A stretch of DNA of 64,000 bases from a virus (Duplodnaviria; Caudoviricetes). Location: the IMG/VR virus record IMGVR_UViG_3300010149_000008, one strand, 5' to 3'. Below the pieces are notes generated by a model. That model was not told the origin of the DNA. It saw only the letters and a list, made by a program, of their open reading frames with translations, and searched no databases. A program made the position numbers and the translations under genes. Shown here in pieces: positions 18,599 through 47,213 of the stretch (position 1 is its first letter; each line of letters begins with the position of its first letter).

Positions 18599-19669
18599 AT
18601 GAAAATATTAAATAACAAGGCAATAAGTTTTGATGATATTGTTTTAATACCACAACATTCTGACATAAATTCTAGAAGCGAAATTAATACTACCGTAAAA
18701 ATAGCTCATGAAAACAATACTGAGACATCTTTTAAGATACCTATAATTAGCAGTCCAATGTCAACAGTTACAGAAGCACACATGTGTAACGCAATTAGAA
18801 GTCAAGGAGGCTTAGGGATTATTCACAGATACAATACGATTGAATATCAGACTAGACTTTTAAGTTTTGTAAGCGACAATGAAACAAAGGCAGCTGCAAT
18901 TGGAGTTTCTGGTGACTTTAAAGAAAGACTTTCATCTCTAGTGGAAAAAGGATTAAAGATTGTATGTATTGATATTGCTCATGGTGATCACAAATTAATG
19001 GAAAACGCTATCGAATTTGTAAGATCAGAGTATAATGATTTATTTGTGATTGCTGGAAATGTTGCAACTGGTTCAGGATACAAAAGATTAGCTTATGCAG
19101 GAGCTCATGGAATACGAACTTCTGTAGGCAGCGGAAGCATATGTACTACAAGAATTCAAACGGGACATGGCATGCCAACTCTGAGTGCAATTATTGAAAT
19201 TTCCAAAGCAAAAAAAGAGTTAATAACAGAGCTAAATTATACTTCAAAAAGCTTGCCTTTTGTAATAGCTGATGGTGGCATTAAGAATAGCGGTGACATA
19301 GTAAAGTCTCTTGCAGCAGGAGCTGACTTTGTAATGTTAGGATCAATGTTAAGCGGGACAAAAGAAACGCCTGGAAAGATTATTTTAAATAGTGAAGGAA
19401 ATAAAATAAAAAGATACAATGGAATGGCTTCAAAGTTAGCTCAAAAAAACTGGAAAGGATCTTACTCTTCTATAGAAGGTGTAAGCTCTTATGTAAATTA
19501 CAAAGGAACTGTTTCGAAAGTAATAAACGAAATAATGTCAAACGTAAGAAGTGGCATGTCTTATACAGGAGCTAGATCACTAAAAGAGTTAAGAGAAGAA
19601 GCTATTGCTATTATTCAAACTAATTCTTCACATTCAGAAGGTAACCCACATATTTTTAATAGAAGGTAA
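18599..19669 (+). CDS. IMP dehydrogenase / GMP reductase family protein (no CBS domains)
   Basis: SFDDIVLIP, SSPMSTVTE, DIAHG, GSGSICTTR, ADGGIK, GADFVMLGSML. Confidence 0.9.
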   Translation: MKILNNKAISFDDIVLIPQHSDINSRSEINTTVKIAHENNTETSFKIPIISSPMSTVTEAHMCNAIRSQGGLGIIHRYNTIEYQTRLLSFVSDNETKAAAIGVSGDFKERLSSLVEKGLKIVCIDIAHGDHKLMENAIEFVRSEYNDLFVIAGNVATGSGYKRLAYAGAHGIRTSVGSGSICTTRIQTGHGMPTLSAIIEISKAKKELITELNYTSKSLPFVIADGGIKNSGDIVKSLAAGADFVMLGSMLSGTKETPGKIILNSEGNKIKRYNGMASKLAQKNWKGSYSSIEGVSSYVNYKGTVSKVINEIMSNVRSGMSYTGARSLKELREEAIAIIQTNSSHSEGNPHIFNRR

Positions 19670-19672
19670 AAC

Positions 19673-20872
19673 ATGCCAACAAAAATAGTTTTAGGTCTTC
19701 AACATGGAGACGAAGGTAAAGGAAGAGTTGTAGATGACTTAGTTCAGACTTGGGCTGACGTAGTTGTAAGGTTTCAAGGAGGAGGAAATGCAGGTCATAC
19801 AGTTTATGATAAAGAAGGAAATAAGTTTGTAACACATATTTTACCGGTAGGCGTTTTAAATAAAAGTAAATTTAATTTCATAGCTAAAGGTTGTGTAATC
19901 AACATTATCGATTTATTTAAAGAAATAAAAGAATTAAACGTATTGCCTGAAAATCTATTAATTTCAGGCAACTGTCCTTTAATAGAACCTACTCATTTAA
20001 TCAAAGATAAGATTAAGTATCAAGGCAAGTTAGGTACTACAGGAAGAGGAATTGGCCCAGCTTACTCTGAGTTTTATGCAAGAGATTCTATACTTTTTAA
20101 AGATTTTATTAAAAGTCCAAAAGAAGTAGCTATTAAAATACAAGACAAATTTTTTGACTATCAAACATTTTTAGCTGAATTAGGTATTGAAGGAAATTCT
20201 GATGTAATAGAAGAAAACTTTAGATTATTTAATAAATGGTTTAATGAATATAACAAAGCACATAAATTATTAGAAGCTTACCTTTGTAGCAACGAAAATA
20301 TTATACAAGAAATATACAGTAGAAATTCTAATATTCTTTTAGAAGGAGCTCAAGGAAGTGGTCTAAGTATATATTCAAACAACTACCCAGATGTTACATC
20401 TTCATCACCTTCAGTCGGTGAAGCTTTAAACTCTACTGGTCTTAATCATAAACAAATTGACGAAGTAATCGGCGTAATAAAGTCTTATAAAACAAAAGTA
20501 GGAAGTGGATCTTTTCCTAGCAGATGTGATCCTGTTTCTGAAGATGTTTTGTCAAAAATTGGTAAAGAATTTGGAGCAACAACCGGTCGACCTAGAAAGT
20601 GCGGCTGGCTAGATCTAGATGAAGTTATAGATGCAGTCAACATAAACGGTGTAGATCATATATGTGTTATAAAATCAGATGTTTTTTGCAACATAAAAGA
20701 ACCTTACGTTTACCATGAAAAAGAGCTTAAATCTATATCTAAAATAAACTCTGTTTCTCTTGAAGACAGCGCTTTTGTAGATTTATTAAATATTATTAAA
20801 ACAAAAACAGGCGTCAACAAAGTGTCATTTACAACAGGACCAAAAAGAGGAGAAATAGTTTGGAATGTTTAA
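19673..20872 (+). CDS. purA: Adenylosuccinate synthetase
   Basis: GDEGKG, RFQGGGNAGHT, GTTGRGIGPAY, EGAQG, GATTGRPRKCGWLD. Confidence 0.93.
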   Translation: MPTKIVLGLQHGDEGKGRVVDDLVQTWADVVVRFQGGGNAGHTVYDKEGNKFVTHILPVGVLNKSKFNFIAKGCVINIIDLFKEIKELNVLPENLLISGNCPLIEPTHLIKDKIKYQGKLGTTGRGIGPAYSEFYARDSILFKDFIKSPKEVAIKIQDKFFDYQTFLAELGIEGNSDVIEENFRLFNKWFNEYNKAHKLLEAYLCSNENIIQEIYSRNSNILLEGAQGSGLSIYSNNYPDVTSSSPSVGEALNSTGLNHKQIDEVIGVIKSYKTKVGSGSFPSRCDPVSEDVLSKIGKEFGATTGRPRKCGWLDLDEVIDAVNINGVDHICVIKSDVFCNIKEPYVYHEKELKSISKINSVSLEDSAFVDLLNIIKTKTGVNKVSFTTGPKRGEIVWNV

Positions 20873-21092
20873 TTTTAAAAAAGGAGACTTAATACAGTTT
20901 AAAATTTCTAAAGAACTCTGTATTATAATTGACGATTTTGATCAAGAAAAATTTGAAGCTTTAAATACAACTGTAGTTTCTAATATGTCTAGAAAAATAT
21001 TAACGTTTACAGAAAGAGGTCCTGAAATTAATTTTACACCAAACTTTAATATAGCTTTAATTAAAAGTGAAAAGGAAGAAAATGATACCTAG
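20865..21092 (+). CDS. Hypothetical protein
   Basis: Overlap-coupled between purA and purB. Confidence 0.65.
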   Translation: MFNFKKGDLIQFKISKELCIIIDDFDQEKFEALNTTVVSNMSRKILTFTERGPEINFTPNFNIALIKSEKEENDT

Positions 21093-22233
21093 ATATAAAG
21101 TACAAGAAATTCATGATATATGGAAAACAGATAATAAGCTAAAAACATGGCTAGCTGTAGAAATTGCTCATTTAGAATCATTAGCTAATAGCATTACTGA
21201 TAAGACTATTAGTAATGAAAGCTTTGAAATTATTAAAGAAAACGCAAAGATTGATATTGATAGATGGAAAGAAATAGAAAAAGAAACTAGACACGATCTT
21301 CAAGCTTTTGTGCAAATGCTTGAAGAAAGTATACCTAAAAACGAAGGAAGATGGATTCATTACGGACTAACGTCTTCTGACATTTTAGATACTTCTCTTT
21401 CAATAATGTCAAAGAAAAGTCTGAACGTGATCATAAATTATACTGCAAAAGTTTTATATACACTTAACAAACTTTTAAAATCAGACGTTTATAAAAAAAA
21501 TATCTTAGCAAGAACTCATGGAAAATCTGCAGAAATACAAACGTACTATGATGTTTTTTATAGATGGATTAGCTTTGTAAGAAAAGGCCATGATTCACTA
21601 GTTGAAGCAAAAAACAAGATAAGCGTTGGAAAATTAAGTGGTGCAACAGGAAATTATAAATTTAACACTAAACAATGTGAATATAATGCATTAGATTCTT
21701 TAGGACTTAAACCAGTTGTATCTTCTCAGATTATATCGAGGCAGTATTATCTAGACTATTTTTATGGAATATTGCAAGTTATTTTAGCTGTAGAAAAAAT
21801 TGCATATGACATCAGGATTTACAGTTTAGATGGCATTAATGAAATGTCTGAACCCTTTAGAAAAGGACAAAAAGGTTCAAGCGCAATGCCACACAAGAAA
21901 AACCCTATATTAACAGAAAATATATGCGGATTGACACGTTTATACAAAGCTTATTTTTCAACAGCTGTTGAAAATTGTACGACTTTGTTAGAGAGAGATA
22001 TCTCTCACTCTTCTTCAGAAAGAATTATTTTCAAAGACTCAGCACATATTGCATGCTTTACATTAGATAGGCTAGACAAAGTATTAAAAGGCTTAAACAT
22101 AGATACAGTTAACGCAAAAAATAATTGCAAAAAAATGGAATCTGCTACAAACTCACAAAAATCAATGAACGATTTAATAGAACAAGGTTATAGCAGAAAA
22201 GAAGCACATGATATTACACAGTCAAACATATAA
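21082..22233 (+). CDS. purB: Adenylosuccinate lyase (short C-terminus)
   Basis: TRHDL, IHYGLTSSDILDT, RTHG, GSSAMPHKKNP. Confidence 0.93.
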   Translation: MIPRYKVQEIHDIWKTDNKLKTWLAVEIAHLESLANSITDKTISNESFEIIKENAKIDIDRWKEIEKETRHDLQAFVQMLEESIPKNEGRWIHYGLTSSDILDTSLSIMSKKSLNVIINYTAKVLYTLNKLLKSDVYKKNILARTHGKSAEIQTYYDVFYRWISFVRKGHDSLVEAKNKISVGKLSGATGNYKFNTKQCEYNALDSLGLKPVVSSQIISRQYYLDYFYGILQVILAVEKIAYDIRIYSLDGINEMSEPFRKGQKGSSAMPHKKNPILTENICGLTRLYKAYFSTAVENCTTLLERDISHSSSERIIFKDSAHIACFTLDRLDKVLKGLNIDTVNAKNNCKKMESATNSQKSMNDLIEQGYSRKEAHDITQSNI

Positions 22234-25568: not shown

Positions 25569-26663
25569 TTGAACATTGATACTTTTATTAATATTGCTAA
25601 AGATCTTCCTCCACATATTGCTGTTCTTATAAGAGGTGGAACAGGAATTGGCAAGTCTGCTATTACAGGACAGATTTCAAAAAGCTTGAAAAAACCTCTT
25701 CCACTTATCGATGTACGTGGTTCTACAATGTCTGAAGGTGATACTGGAGGTTACCCAGATATTGAGGGTATGAAGAAAAACGGAGTTATGACTTTTTGCA
25801 TGCCCGCTTGGTTCATTAGGGCTTGCAACGAGCCTGTTGTTTTATTTTTAGACGAACTTAATAGATCTTTACCCGCAGTCCAACAATCCTTCTTTCAGAT
25901 TGTTTTAGATAGACAGTTAGGAAATGATGAAAACGGCAATCCATATAATTTACACCCAGAGACTCGCGTCTTTGCAGCTGTAAACCACGGATCAGAATAT
26001 GATGTAAACGAAATGGATCCTGCTTTATTAAGACGATTTTGGACTGTTGACCTTAAGCCCGATATTGATAGCTGGATTTCTTGGGCAACAAAAAACAATA
26101 TTGACAATATGATTATTGAGTTTCTAAAAACTAGATCAATAAATTTTGCTCCTGATGCTAGTTCCATTGAGCCAGGAAACGTATTTCCTACTCCAGCTTC
26201 TTGGACTAGGTTAGATGAAGCTATAAAGTTTATGGCAATTGACTTAGAAAAAGAAGGAAAGCTAGATAAACCTCTGATATATAACATTGCTTCAGGTTTC
26301 GTTGGCACACCCGTAGCAATTGAGTTTTCTGACTACGTAGAAAAATACGAGGCTAATGTAACTCCTCAAGATATTTTAGACAGATATGATGATCTAACTA
26401 ATAAAATTAATAGATTAAGTAATGATAGACTCAATCTGCTAATTGAACGTCTAGGTGAACATGGAAGACAAAATAACTGGACTGTAACACAAGCAGAAAA
26501 TGCAGCAAAGTTTGGAAAAAGTATATCAGAAGAAATGCTTATTCATATGTGGAGCAAAATTTCTGAAACTAAAAACATTAAAACAATTCAAAACTTTCAC
26601 AAATTTATTGGCCAATACTTAGTGAAAGTTGTTAACTCAAACAAAGATTTACTAAGTAATTAA
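25569..26663 (+). CDS. MoxR-like AAA+ ATPase
   Basis: GGTGIGKS, LFLDELNR, AAVN, MDPALLRRF, PTPASW. Confidence 0.88.
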   Translation: MNIDTFINIAKDLPPHIAVLIRGGTGIGKSAITGQISKSLKKPLPLIDVRGSTMSEGDTGGYPDIEGMKKNGVMTFCMPAWFIRACNEPVVLFLDELNRSLPAVQQSFFQIVLDRQLGNDENGNPYNLHPETRVFAAVNHGSEYDVNEMDPALLRRFWTVDLKPDIDSWISWATKNNIDNMIIEFLKTRSINFAPDASSIEPGNVFPTPASWTRLDEAIKFMAIDLEKEGKLDKPLIYNIASGFVGTPVAIEFSDYVEKYEANVTPQDILDRYDDLTNKINRLSNDRLNLLIERLGEHGRQNNWTVTQAENAAKFGKSISEEMLIHMWSKISETKNIKTIQNFHKFIGQYLVKVVNSNKDLLSN

Positions 26664-26688
26664 TAATAAAGTTTATAGTTTTGTATGC

Positions 26689-26718
26689 GTGCAAATGACT
26701 ATAAAATTAGTGTATAAT
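26689..26718 (+). promoter_or_regulatory. Promoter (GTGCAA-N18-TATAAT)
   Basis: Recurrent motif, followed by AGGAGG RBS. Confidence 0.75.
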
Positions 26719-26735
26719 ATCATTAAGGAGGATAA

Positions 26736-28040
26736 ATGAAAAAAGAAACAACTTCTAATGGAATTAGTAGATCAATAAATGTTTCCCAATCAGATATTGA
26801 TAACTTTAAACTACAAAGTCATCTAGTAGACCTACTTTGGGACGAACCTTTTTATAGTAGAATTTTAAGAAGCTTAAATAAAATTGAAACTGAAGAGATA
26901 CCAACTGCAGGAGTTCTTTGTAAAGACGGCGAAATTACAATGTGGTGGAATAGAAGATTTCTTGCTTCACTTCCAAAAAACAAAGTTAAAGGTTTAATTA
27001 AACATGAGTGTCTTCATCTAGCTTTTAAGCATACAACTGATAGAAGAAATTCTCCTCATATTATTTGGAACTATGCAACTGATTTAGCTATTAATTCAAT
27101 TATACCCTATGATGAGTTACCTAAAGGTGGTTTAGTTCCTGGATATCATTTAGAGCCTTTAACAAATGATGATATGGAAAATATGACAAAAGAAAACATT
27201 GACATGTTTAATGTTCTTTCAAGTCTTATTGCATCTTTTCCTCAAAACAAAACTTCTGAATATTACTTTGAAAAACTCATGCAAAATGAAACAATCAAAG
27301 AACATGCAGAAAAATCAAGTAGTTTCTTATCAGATGGCTTTCCTGATGTTGGCTTTGATGACCATGAAGGTTGGGATGAGATGAGTGCTGAAGCACGAGA
27401 AATGATGAAAGAAAAGTTAGGAGAAATATTAAAGTCTGCCGTAGAAGAATCAAATCAAAAAGGATGGGGTTCAATATCTTCTCAAGTCGCAATTACTCTA
27501 AACAAAATGATATCAAAGACAATTAAATGGGAAGATGTTTTAAAAAGATTTTGTGGTTTTACGAGAAGAGACGATAGACAATCATCGACTAAGAGGCTTA
27601 ACAGAAAATATCCTGCAATACATCCAGGATCAAAAAAAATATACAAACCTAGAATTGCTGTATATGTTGATGAAAGTGGTTCAATGCCAGCATCAATACT
27701 TGAAAATTTCTATGGAGAGCTAAATAGTTTAAGCTCTAGAACAGACTTTTATATGTATAAGTTTGATGCTGTAGTAGATGACAAGTCAGGTTTTCTTTGG
27801 AAAAAAGGTAAAAGACTTAAGATAGAAAGGACAATGCACGGAGGCACAAGCTTTCAATCTGTAACTAAACATGCAATCAAAAACAAAAAGAACTTTGACG
27901 GCTATATAATCTTTACAGATGGTTGTGCACCTAAACCTTCACCTTCCCATGGCTTAAAGAGATGTTGGCTCTTGATGCCTAATTGTGAACTAAGTTTTAA
28001 AAAAAATAATTCAGATATTTTAATTCAAATGAAAAGTTAA
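26736..28040 (+). CDS. HExxH metallopeptidase + vWA domain protein (DUF2201-like)
   Basis: KHECLH, WNYATDLAIN, VYVDESGSM, GGTSF, FTDG. Confidence 0.85.
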   Translation: MKKETTSNGISRSINVSQSDIDNFKLQSHLVDLLWDEPFYSRILRSLNKIETEEIPTAGVLCKDGEITMWWNRRFLASLPKNKVKGLIKHECLHLAFKHTTDRRNSPHIIWNYATDLAINSIIPYDELPKGGLVPGYHLEPLTNDDMENMTKENIDMFNVLSSLIASFPQNKTSEYYFEKLMQNETIKEHAEKSSSFLSDGFPDVGFDDHEGWDEMSAEAREMMKEKLGEILKSAVEESNQKGWGSISSQVAITLNKMISKTIKWEDVLKRFCGFTRRDDRQSSTKRLNRKYPAIHPGSKKIYKPRIAVYVDESGSMPASILENFYGELNSLSSRTDFYMYKFDAVVDDKSGFLWKKGKRLKIERTMHGGTSFQSVTKHAIKNKKNFDGYIIFTDGCAPKPSPSHGLKRCWLLMPNCELSFKKNNSDILIQMKS

Positions 28041-41470: not shown

Positions 41471-42067
41471 TTAGCCCCAAGCACTTCCTTGTTTGTTTTT
41501 AAATGACTTTTTACTTTTTGAAGTAGCTGAATTACGTACGTCAGGCCATAAATAATATACTGTATAACCATGTTCAGACTTATATACAGCTTTTTGTTTT
41601 CTACCGTTAATATCAATTTCTCCATAGTAATATTTTTGCGGGTCTCCTTGATAAGGTCCAGCTGGCCATGGTACGTCGAAGCTTCCATCATTACTGACAC
41701 CTATGCCATTATTTATTCCAGCTTCGTATATTAAATCGTCTTCTGTCATTACAATATCACCAACATCAACATCACTGGGGAAGCCAGACATACCTTTGAT
41801 ATGCTTTGTTAGACTTTCAATTTCAATTTGATAACCATATTCTTCATTAATCATTTCTTCATCACCATGCTGATCAAACCTGTCGTAGCAATAAAAAATA
41901 TCTTTACCATGAATATCTTCTAACTCTTTCAACAAATCTTTTGCTTTTTTTGTAGGATTGTGTCTAGTTCTTGTTATAGATCCTCCTTGAGATTCGTTAA
42001 CTTTACTTTTAAATTCGAACTTTCGCCATTCTTTTAAGATTTTTTTTGTCTCATTAGTTTTTTTCAT
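41471..42067 (-). CDS. Hypothetical protein with TKxxLKEW N-tag and GSAWG C-tag
   Basis: Termini shared with 42964-43707. Confidence 0.75.
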   Translation of the reverse strand: MKKTNETKKILKEWRKFEFKSKVNESQGGSITRTRHNPTKKAKDLLKELEDIHGKDIFYCYDRFDQHGDEEMINEEYGYQIEIESLTKHIKGMSGFPSDVDVGDIVMTEDDLIYEAGINNGIGVSNDGSFDVPWPAGPYQGDPQKYYYGEIDINGRKQKAVYKSEHGYTVYYLWPDVRNSATSKSKKSFKNKQGSAWG

Positions 42068-42963: not shown

Positions 42964-43707
42964 ATGAGAAAAGTCATTCAGACAAAAGAAGTTTTAAAAG
43001 AATGGAATTCTTTTTTAATAAAAGAATCAAATGCTGATAGAGTAAAAAGGATGATTGATGATCTAGAAAGCTTTGGAAAACAAATTCATATTACAGAGCC
43101 AAGTAAAAGCGTTATTGTAATTACTTATGGAAAAAATTACACTAGCGGTAATCGAGATGCATCAAAAAACTTATTTGGACAGATACGCTGTTCAGACACT
43201 TCAGCGTCATATGATGATAAACAAAAAGGCATTGGAGCAGGAGAAACAAACTCTTGTTGGGAAGTTGATTTAACTAGTCACACTACTAAGGGAATGGGTC
43301 CTTTGCTTTATGAAGTGCTTATTGAATATATTAGCAATATAAAAAGAGCTTCGCTTAAACCAGATGCATCCTCAGTTTCTGATTTAGCAAAAAATGTGTG
43401 GAATAAGTTTAACGATAGACCGCAGAACGATGTTAAAAAAATTCAGTTAGATGTTGGTGAAAAAACTGTATATAGATTTAAGAGATACAAAAACCAAGAT
43501 GTTAAACAACTAACACCTGACAATGTTGAAGATGATACGATGCAGGATTCATCAATAAGAGACAAAGGTTTTGATGCTTGGGAAGAAAGTGCTTTAAGTA
43601 AAGCCTATAAAAAACTAGATATGCCGATTATAGATGAACTTAAAGCTAGAAATCTAATTATAATGCCTAAAACATTTAAAAGCAAACTAGGCAGTGCATG
43701 GGGTTAA
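42964..43707 (+). CDS. GNAT-like protein with TKxxLKEW N-tag and GSAWG C-tag
   Basis: KGMGPLLYE, SVSDLAKNVW, QLD, LTP..DD, SALSKAYKK. Confidence 0.6.
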   Translation: MRKVIQTKEVLKEWNSFLIKESNADRVKRMIDDLESFGKQIHITEPSKSVIVITYGKNYTSGNRDASKNLFGQIRCSDTSASYDDKQKGIGAGETNSCWEVDLTSHTTKGMGPLLYEVLIEYISNIKRASLKPDASSVSDLAKNVWNKFNDRPQNDVKKIQLDVGEKTVYRFKRYKNQDVKQLTPDNVEDDTMQDSSIRDKGFDAWEESALSKAYKKLDMPIIDELKARNLIIMPKTFKSKLGSAWG

Positions 43708-46610: not shown

Positions 46611-46683
46611 TGGGCCCGGTGGGGATTGAACCCACGACCGGCCGATTATGAGTCGGATGCTCTAACCACTGAGCTACAGGCCC
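46611..46683 (-). tRNA. tRNA with CAT anticodon, probably Ile2 (lysidine type); no encoded CCA
   Basis: GGGCCTG/CGGGCCC; CCGA-CTCATAA-TCGG; overall sequence resembles bacterial Ile2 more than Met. Confidence 0.9.
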
Positions 46684-46691
46684 GTAAGATA

Positions 46692-46817
46692 TTGAGGTTC
46701 CCAACTTCCTCAACTAGACACAGCCTAAATGATCATTACTTCGATCACGCTTCCGCAACCACAAAATAGCATTCTGCTAGTAATGCATGCTAACTATAAT
46801 GATGGTCTGTGTCCCCC
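46692..46817 (-). ncRNA. Candidate structured RNA immediately 5' of the CAT tRNA
   Basis: GACACAG/CTGTGTC closing stem, three internal hairpins, TTGAGG/CCTCAA hairpin. Confidence 0.45.
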
Positions 46818-46832
46818 ACATATTATATTTAA

Positions 46833-47213
46833 TTATCGAGGTGTTACTAAAATAGTATTTTCTCCGTTTGTATACACATTAGTAATTTCAGAGCTATCAT
46901 AGTTTTCTGCTACTTGCTGAATTCTACGAAGTTGATCATTTAGTCTAAACAAAGGAGTAAACTGTGATGTTCCGTTTTGACGATAGTTGACCTTAGTATA
47001 TCGGGTCTTTTTATGAGTTGTTGTTACTGTTGTTTCATTAGATCCTGTTTTGACGTTTTGCTCTGTTGTCTTAATAATTCTATGAACGTTTCCATTTCTA
47101 TTAGCTGAGTAGTATACTCCTGGGTTTAGTGTATCCATAAACATTGTTGTTCCGTTTTCAATTTGTCTTGCAGTTGAATTTTCAATAAATCTATTAGTAT
47201 TAAAGTTGCTCAT
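46833..47213 (-). CDS. Hypothetical protein
   Basis: AAGGA RBS. Confidence 0.7.
   Translation of the reverse strand: MSNFNTNRFIENSTARQIENGTTMFMDTLNPGVYYSANRNGNVHRIIKTTEQNVKTGSNETTVTTTHKKTRYTKVNYRQNGTSQFTPLFRLNDQLRRIQQVAENYDSSEITNVYTNGENTILVTPR

Follow-up and report, generated by a model that had tools for sequence, protein, structure and literature searches.

A patchily distributed structured RNA family of large uncultured phages, with one member directly upstream of a tRNA-CAU gene

The 64,000-nt stretch of phage DNA analysed here (the window), part of a 256-kb marine metagenome phage contig, carries on its minus strand a 128-nt element (46819-46692) that belongs to an RNA family with a conserved fold and fixed unpaired words, found patchily in differing gene neighbourhoods of large uncultured phages. 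On the evidence of its own sequence and that of its homologs, the element is almost certainly a real conserved RNA. The first-pass annotation had proposed a novel structured non-coding RNA on the minus strand at 46692-46817, and this proposal draws support from covariation among homologs and from the absence of an Rfam match to the element. The sequence words quoted for it are all present where they had been placed, and the element is indeed GC-rich against its background (G+C 43%, compared with 30.5% for the window); its 5' boundary moves outwards by 2 nt to take in a conserved GTGGG that begins at 46819. The region had also been described as free of open reading frames, which needs qualifying: short mechanical ORFs do overlap it, none of which is preserved in the homologs.

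The window contains many small genes, five tRNAs and, named by inspection, genes for GroEL, a sigma factor and purine metabolism; none of the cultured phages is a near relative, the best GroEL identity being 40%. A gene run at 18599-22233 resembles, also by inspection, an IMP/GMP-type dehydrogenase, adenylosuccinate synthetase and lyase, and two unrelated-looking proteins (41471-42067 and 42964-43707) each have a C-terminal GSAWG and a similar LKEW motif at the start. An AAA ATPase gene with an adjoining peptidase-like gene (25569-28040) has counterparts of 31-34% identity in two loci that carry distant homologs of the element, L240 and L241, and this gene pair marks the broad phage group of the window and both loci. 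The element lies between a 126-aa gene (46833-47213) and a tRNA gene with a CAU anticodon (46611-46683), all on the minus strand. The upstream gene, which has 55 homologs and served as the anchor for collecting relatives, has no Pfam domain and no Atlas match. The tRNA gene does not encode CCA and has C4-G69 and C5-G68, which we take to be TilS determinants and hence a mark of an Ile2-like tRNA. An AT-rich spacer past the stop codon of the upstream gene (46820-46832) may contain a -10 box; no sigma-70 site scoring at least 9/12 was found upstream of the element, and the TATAAT at 46827-46822 is too near the conserved lead and is lost in the related locus L009. On the other side, an 8-nt spacer (46684-46691) takes the place of a U tail and forms the tRNA 5' leader, with a putative RNase P site at its end; four of its seven aligned bases are common to the window and L009.

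Comparison of the homologs gives a common plan of a GUGGG lead, a closing stem (P1), a long arm (P2), a GNRA hairpin (P3), an optional hairpin (P4), the strand UUUAGG, the 3' strand of P1, three bases and a last hairpin (P5). The lead (46815-46819) is single-stranded and invariant in all five sequences. In P1, GACACAG (46807-46813) pairs with CUGUGUC (46717-46723) over 7 bp, with two-sided changes at two pairs, and the homologs confirm this part of the annotated closing stem. The CC/GG extension that had been drawn on it is rejected: it competes for bases with the ACCA stem, which makes the two mutually exclusive, and L240 and L241 have G-G at its second pair. RNAalifold run on the raw alignment predicts the extension over the ACCA stem; we prefer the 4-bp ACCA/TGGT stem because its pairs covary. 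This stem forms the base of P2 (46758-46806), an irregular arm of 49 nt in the window and 34-93 nt in the homologs, from which the annotated TAGCAT/ATGCTA pairing drops out, being broken in the closest homolog with just ATAG/CTAT left. The 24-nt distal loop of P2 contains a GA(A)U(G) word and accounts for seven of the 13 differences between the window and L009. Within this loop, positions 46780-46788 of the window hold a 9-nt word that forms the tRNA leader of L009, and the L009 loop holds 7 nt of the window leader (46684-46691); both coincidences may be chance. A short reading frame from an AUG in P2 is not conserved, and the word AGCAGAAT is not enriched in the window.

P3 (46748-46757) is a hairpin of 2-3 bp whose annotated GNRA loop is upheld by the homologs, reading GGAA in the window and GUAA in the three distant copies (L240, L241 and L280). 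P4 (46730-46747) had been described as GTGATC/GATCAT; it stands as TGATC/GATCA in the window, has a counterpart of other sequence in L280 and is absent from L240 and L241. The junction strand UUUAGG (46724-46729) is invariant. P5 (46692-46713), the TTGAGG/CCTCAA hairpin that ends 8 nt before the tRNA, recurs in the homologs as a stem of 6-8 bp with two-sided changes at three pairs and a loop of 10-11 nt in which G(U/A)UGGG is preserved. It is followed by 7-8 U in the three distant homologs, a run missing in the window. The smallest natural copy of the RNA is ~107 nt.

The fold energy of the element on the minus strand is -36.3 kcal/mol. Both strands fold better than shuffled controls (z -2.6 on the minus and -4.0 on the plus strand), and the multi-stem part alone reaches a modest z of -2.8 in the window and -1.8 in close homologs. 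As the plus strand scores better than the minus strand, energy alone leaves the strand undecided, and the annotated minus strand is retained because of the GNRA loops and the promoter and U tails of the homologs. Conservation is stronger evidence for the element than folding energy.

Scanning with a 16-nt word from the last hairpin led to L229/L240, a locus of a complete 186-kb phage. Its agreement extends to the 5' lead, the GNRA hairpin and UUUAGG, none of which was part of the query. The pattern scan that found this locus gave one true homolog among 13 matches, and other pattern scans gave chance matches only. L241 and L280 were found among loci collected via the downstream gene of L229/L240. 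L241, outside the training set, has a profile E of 6e-9, and L280 is weak on the 3' core (E 0.16) and has 16/17 identical bases at the 5' end. A first model built from close copies alone had failed to find the distant family. Proteins near these three copies are mainly 31-36% identical to window proteins. In the alignment 80/81 cells are paired, against 26-53% in slid controls, and seven of 17 scored pairs, in P1 and P5 among others, show two-sided changes; these counts come from five sequences with the structure drawn from the same sequences and are not independent, because only about three deep lineages are represented, so they lend support to the predicted fold and are no probability.

The family model has true matches in three of 50 related virus records (one of nine that are near-complete), with one copy each. 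L240 and L241 come from related phages, with shared proteins at 63-74%, yet have the RNA at different places. No match was found in cultured phages or plasmids or in 28 further virus records, and none in 151 sampled genomes of one bacterial phylum, which is not the likely host and was searched with stricter filters, so that absence there is not proven. Six low-scoring loci (L165, L083, L306, L307, L238 and L239), most of them inside apparent coding DNA, were discarded.

We also compared the spacer before the tRNA-CAU gene in ~40 distinct loci, anchored on the upstream 126-aa gene. The element is carried only by L009, L014 and L215-L217, and ~35 relatives with the same tRNA lack it; in these, the tRNA is preceded by an AT-rich, promoter-like stretch and a single hairpin whose sequence is free. 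The cassette of promoter-like stretch, hairpin and tRNA-CAU follows the 126-aa gene in L008, L015, L022-L070, L079-L082 and L205. A leader hairpin at or below -7 kcal/mol precedes 39/40 CAU tRNAs, compared with 16/36 other cluster-leading tRNAs. Phages whose upstream protein matches that of L009 at 123/128 residues (96%) are without the element, so that its gain or loss must be rapid. Among near-identical phages (L043, L047, L052, L059, L014 and L212) the CAU tRNA at this site switches between Ile2-like and Met-like, and four loci have a 5' half-tRNA remnant before the full CAU tRNA gene. We dropped the idea that P5 is nothing more than the leader hairpin seen throughout the family, as L229 keeps its loop far from any tRNA; at most the last hairpin doubles as one. 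Between the window and L009, identity is 87% over the element and 96% over the last hairpin; four-fold sites in three flanking genes agree at 31/43 (72%), 6/12 (50%) and 9/23 (39%) and the spacer after the tRNA at 63%. Against the most conservative rate, the conservation of the element has a binomial p of 3e-4, and recent cassette exchange could add to the similarity.

The three distant copies have no adjacent tRNA, and in each a run of 7-8 U (T8 in L241) starts one to three bases past P5; the terminator scan did not call the P5 hairpin, whose loop exceeds 8 nt, and hairpin and U run were seen by inspection. In L241 a near-consensus sigma-70 promoter, TTGACA-17-GATACT, ends 9 nt before the lead. 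In L280 an identical 12-nt word lies upstream of both the RNA and the next gene, with no other exact copy in 66 kb, as expected for two separate units. In L240 the RNA ends a structured stretch that begins ~270 nt upstream at a strong promoter, and this position within a longer structured transcript counts against a stand-alone RNA. Part of the DNA upstream of this copy (L240:5620-5810, equal to L229:5990-5805 on the minus strand) can be drawn as a tRNA-like cloverleaf with a T arm, on which ARAGORN and Rfam are silent, and has two copies of an 18-nt word opening hairpins, with no match in other loci; these structures are possibly further undescribed RNAs. The downstream neighbours of the element vary by lineage, being a tRNA and three unrelated small ORFs. 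In contigs from RNA libraries the element is covered at a depth of 2-4 with a single variant, at a bulged P2 position; neighbouring coding DNA is covered too. Assembled contigs at such low depth indicate presence only and carry no information on ends, strand or level.

Against Rfam 15 the window element has no match at the gathering score or at E 10 and the three distant homologs have none at E 5-10, and we found no published papers containing the 5' word of the element. The RNA family is absent from Rfam; it may overlap one of the 10,006 candidate structured RNAs of Fremin et al. (PMC10690425), many of which hold terminators and which were drawn from IMG/VR, also the source of our three distant copies. 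The first-pass annotation had recognised no tmRNA, RNase P, hammerhead or tRNA pattern, and Rfam, ARAGORN and pattern tests agree. There is no T-loop word of a tRNA, tmRNA, tRNA-like or Y RNA, and ARAGORN is silent; the SRP RNA helix-8 motif and conserved regions I and V of RNase P RNA are lacking; a T-box pattern is absent from all five sequences and a K-turn pattern occurs in two only. The complete carrier genome G007 has no Ro60 (TROVE) gene, though its host may have one, and no reverse transcriptase (PF00078) of the retron or DRT kind is present in five records including the complete carrier or, by inspection, among the window ORFs. The consistent downstream gene function of a riboswitch was not found. 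Apparent likenesses to pistol, TPP, SRP helix 8, RNase P, telomerase P6.1 and c-di-GMP-I RNA were not borne out.

The RNA forms a new family of a known broad kind and belongs to none of the families tested; our best guess, by analogy, is that it works like T4 RNAC/RNAD or like P4 CI and P1 C4. RNAC and RNAD of T4 (species 1 and 2) are small RNAs from the tRNA region whose role is unknown (PMC3014915) and which are detected as late RNAs (PMC9697503). The window arrangement shares with them a small RNA in a phage tRNA region, but our element has no match to cultured phages and its tRNA link is confined to one lineage. The CI RNA of P4 and C4 RNA of P1/P7 are substrates of RNase P without a T loop (PMC5499578) and are multi-stem phage RNAs of ~80-130 nt freed from precursors, as the element would be; the element differs in having no C4-type match in Rfam and no antisense target in the window, and its proposed cut is at the neighbouring tRNA rather than at its own 5' end. 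Theta (HDV-like) ribozymes are likewise small structured RNAs beside phage tRNAs (PMC10879173), but they follow the tRNA and have a nested double pseudoknot and a catalytic C in J4/2, whereas the window element precedes its tRNA, three homologs have none, and our own descriptor of this topology has matches in L280 alone and none in the other four sequences. With transcriptional riboswitches, T-box leaders and HK022 put RNA, distant copies of the RNA share a structured stretch near a promoter that leads into a hairpin with a U run. There is some likeness between the last loop and the T-box bulge, and four sequences have an AUG in the long arm; the T-box consensus is absent, however, and L009 has AUU in place of the AUG. 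The RNA also differs from these systems in having no Rfam match and no common downstream function.

With moderate confidence we propose a stand-alone small RNA whose copy in the window has lost the U tail, shares a transcript with tRNA-Ile2(CAU) and is released by RNase P. Because only the lineage of the window has the tRNA next to it, the element is probably the gene of a stand-alone RNA rather than a device for processing the tRNA, and we count in favour of this the retention of the core though nearby proteins are only 31-36% identical. The gene would be one of a family, so far undescribed, whose members large phages acquire, discard and relocate. Its usual form would be transcribed by the host RNA polymerase from its own promoter and end at the last hairpin and U run, giving a trans-acting transcript of 110-170 nt. 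Scaffolding would fall to the variable arm and the optional hairpin, and the lead, five P1 pairs, GNRA hairpin, UUUAGG and UGGG loop would most likely make up a surface to which a protein of the host or phage binds, with the RNA as its decoy or modulator. In the lineage of the window, the RNA gene would have replaced the simple leader hairpin before tRNA-CAU and lost its U run; with an 8-nt tRNA leader in place of that run, the RNA would be made with the tRNA. RNase P matures tRNA 5' ends (PMC10879173), and its cut at the 5' end of the tRNA would make the 3' end of the RNA.

It is possible, if doubtful, that the RNA instead acts in cis as an attenuator or riboswitch-like leader, in which the P1-P4 junction would sense a ligand or protein and the invariant GUGGG would pair with the 3' strand of P5 to block termination and so let RNA polymerase proceed into the genes downstream; in a variant it would be a put-like modifier of RNA polymerase. 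The order of promoter, structure, hairpin, U run and ORF in L240 and L241 fits such a switch, and with the next ORF there beginning ~20 nt past the U run, too close for a promoter of its own, the layout suits a cis element. All five sequences allow the alternative 5-bp helix, which correctly pairs the one mismatch of the last hairpin in L241, and conserved sequence inside a terminator loop is unusual. However, adopting the alternative fold costs 5-10 kcal/mol, the helix is also available to 27-29% of shuffled strands of equal composition, the downstream genes have no common function, the core is still conserved in the window and L009 where the U run is lost, and the next gene in L280 seems to own a promoter word. 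That this switch, or a new small ribozyme, represents a new functional class carried as a mobile module among large aquatic phages is a lesser possibility.

The annotation had also suggested a ribozyme. That the RNA represents a new self-cleaving class and trims phage transcripts is improbable. Typical of small ribozymes are a small multi-way junction, unpaired positions that do not vary, peripheral helices that may be missing and a gene context that changes, all of which the element shares. No tested catalytic motif is common to the homologs, however: the core words of hammerhead, pistol, twister and hairpin ribozymes, sought by pattern tests, are absent, as is any Rfam ribozyme match even at E 10, the HDV-like topology is limited to one of five sequences, and we found no conserved pseudoknot in the element or its homologs. 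The patchy distribution, with differing positions in related phages, would also suit a structured element that is mobile or selfish, or a signal acting at the level of DNA, without RNA function for the phage, but each genome has one copy, the G-U pairs and GNRA loops are as expected for RNA from a single strand, a promoter and U run flank the element and the complete carrier genome has no reverse transcriptase, and we consider this hardly likely. Least probable, and very unlikely indeed, is a leader element that processes or stabilises the tRNA, the other role put forward by the annotation. It would account for the position 8 nt before the tRNA in the window and L009/L014, with P5 where relatives keep their leader hairpin, but three of the five lineages have no tRNA beside their copies and the ~35 relatives with the same tRNA, including those with the 96%-identical upstream protein, do without the element.

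The element adds to phage biology an RNA family with a defined, short, synthesisable consensus, and its natural variants, with or without P4, U run and tRNA and with a short or long arm, are ready-made controls for direct in vitro tests. That the consensus stayed fixed while proteins diverged to ~30% identity points to a conserved host or phage partner. The window also illustrates how a small RNA gene may come to be part of a phage tRNA transcript, as in the arrangement of T4 RNAC and RNAD.
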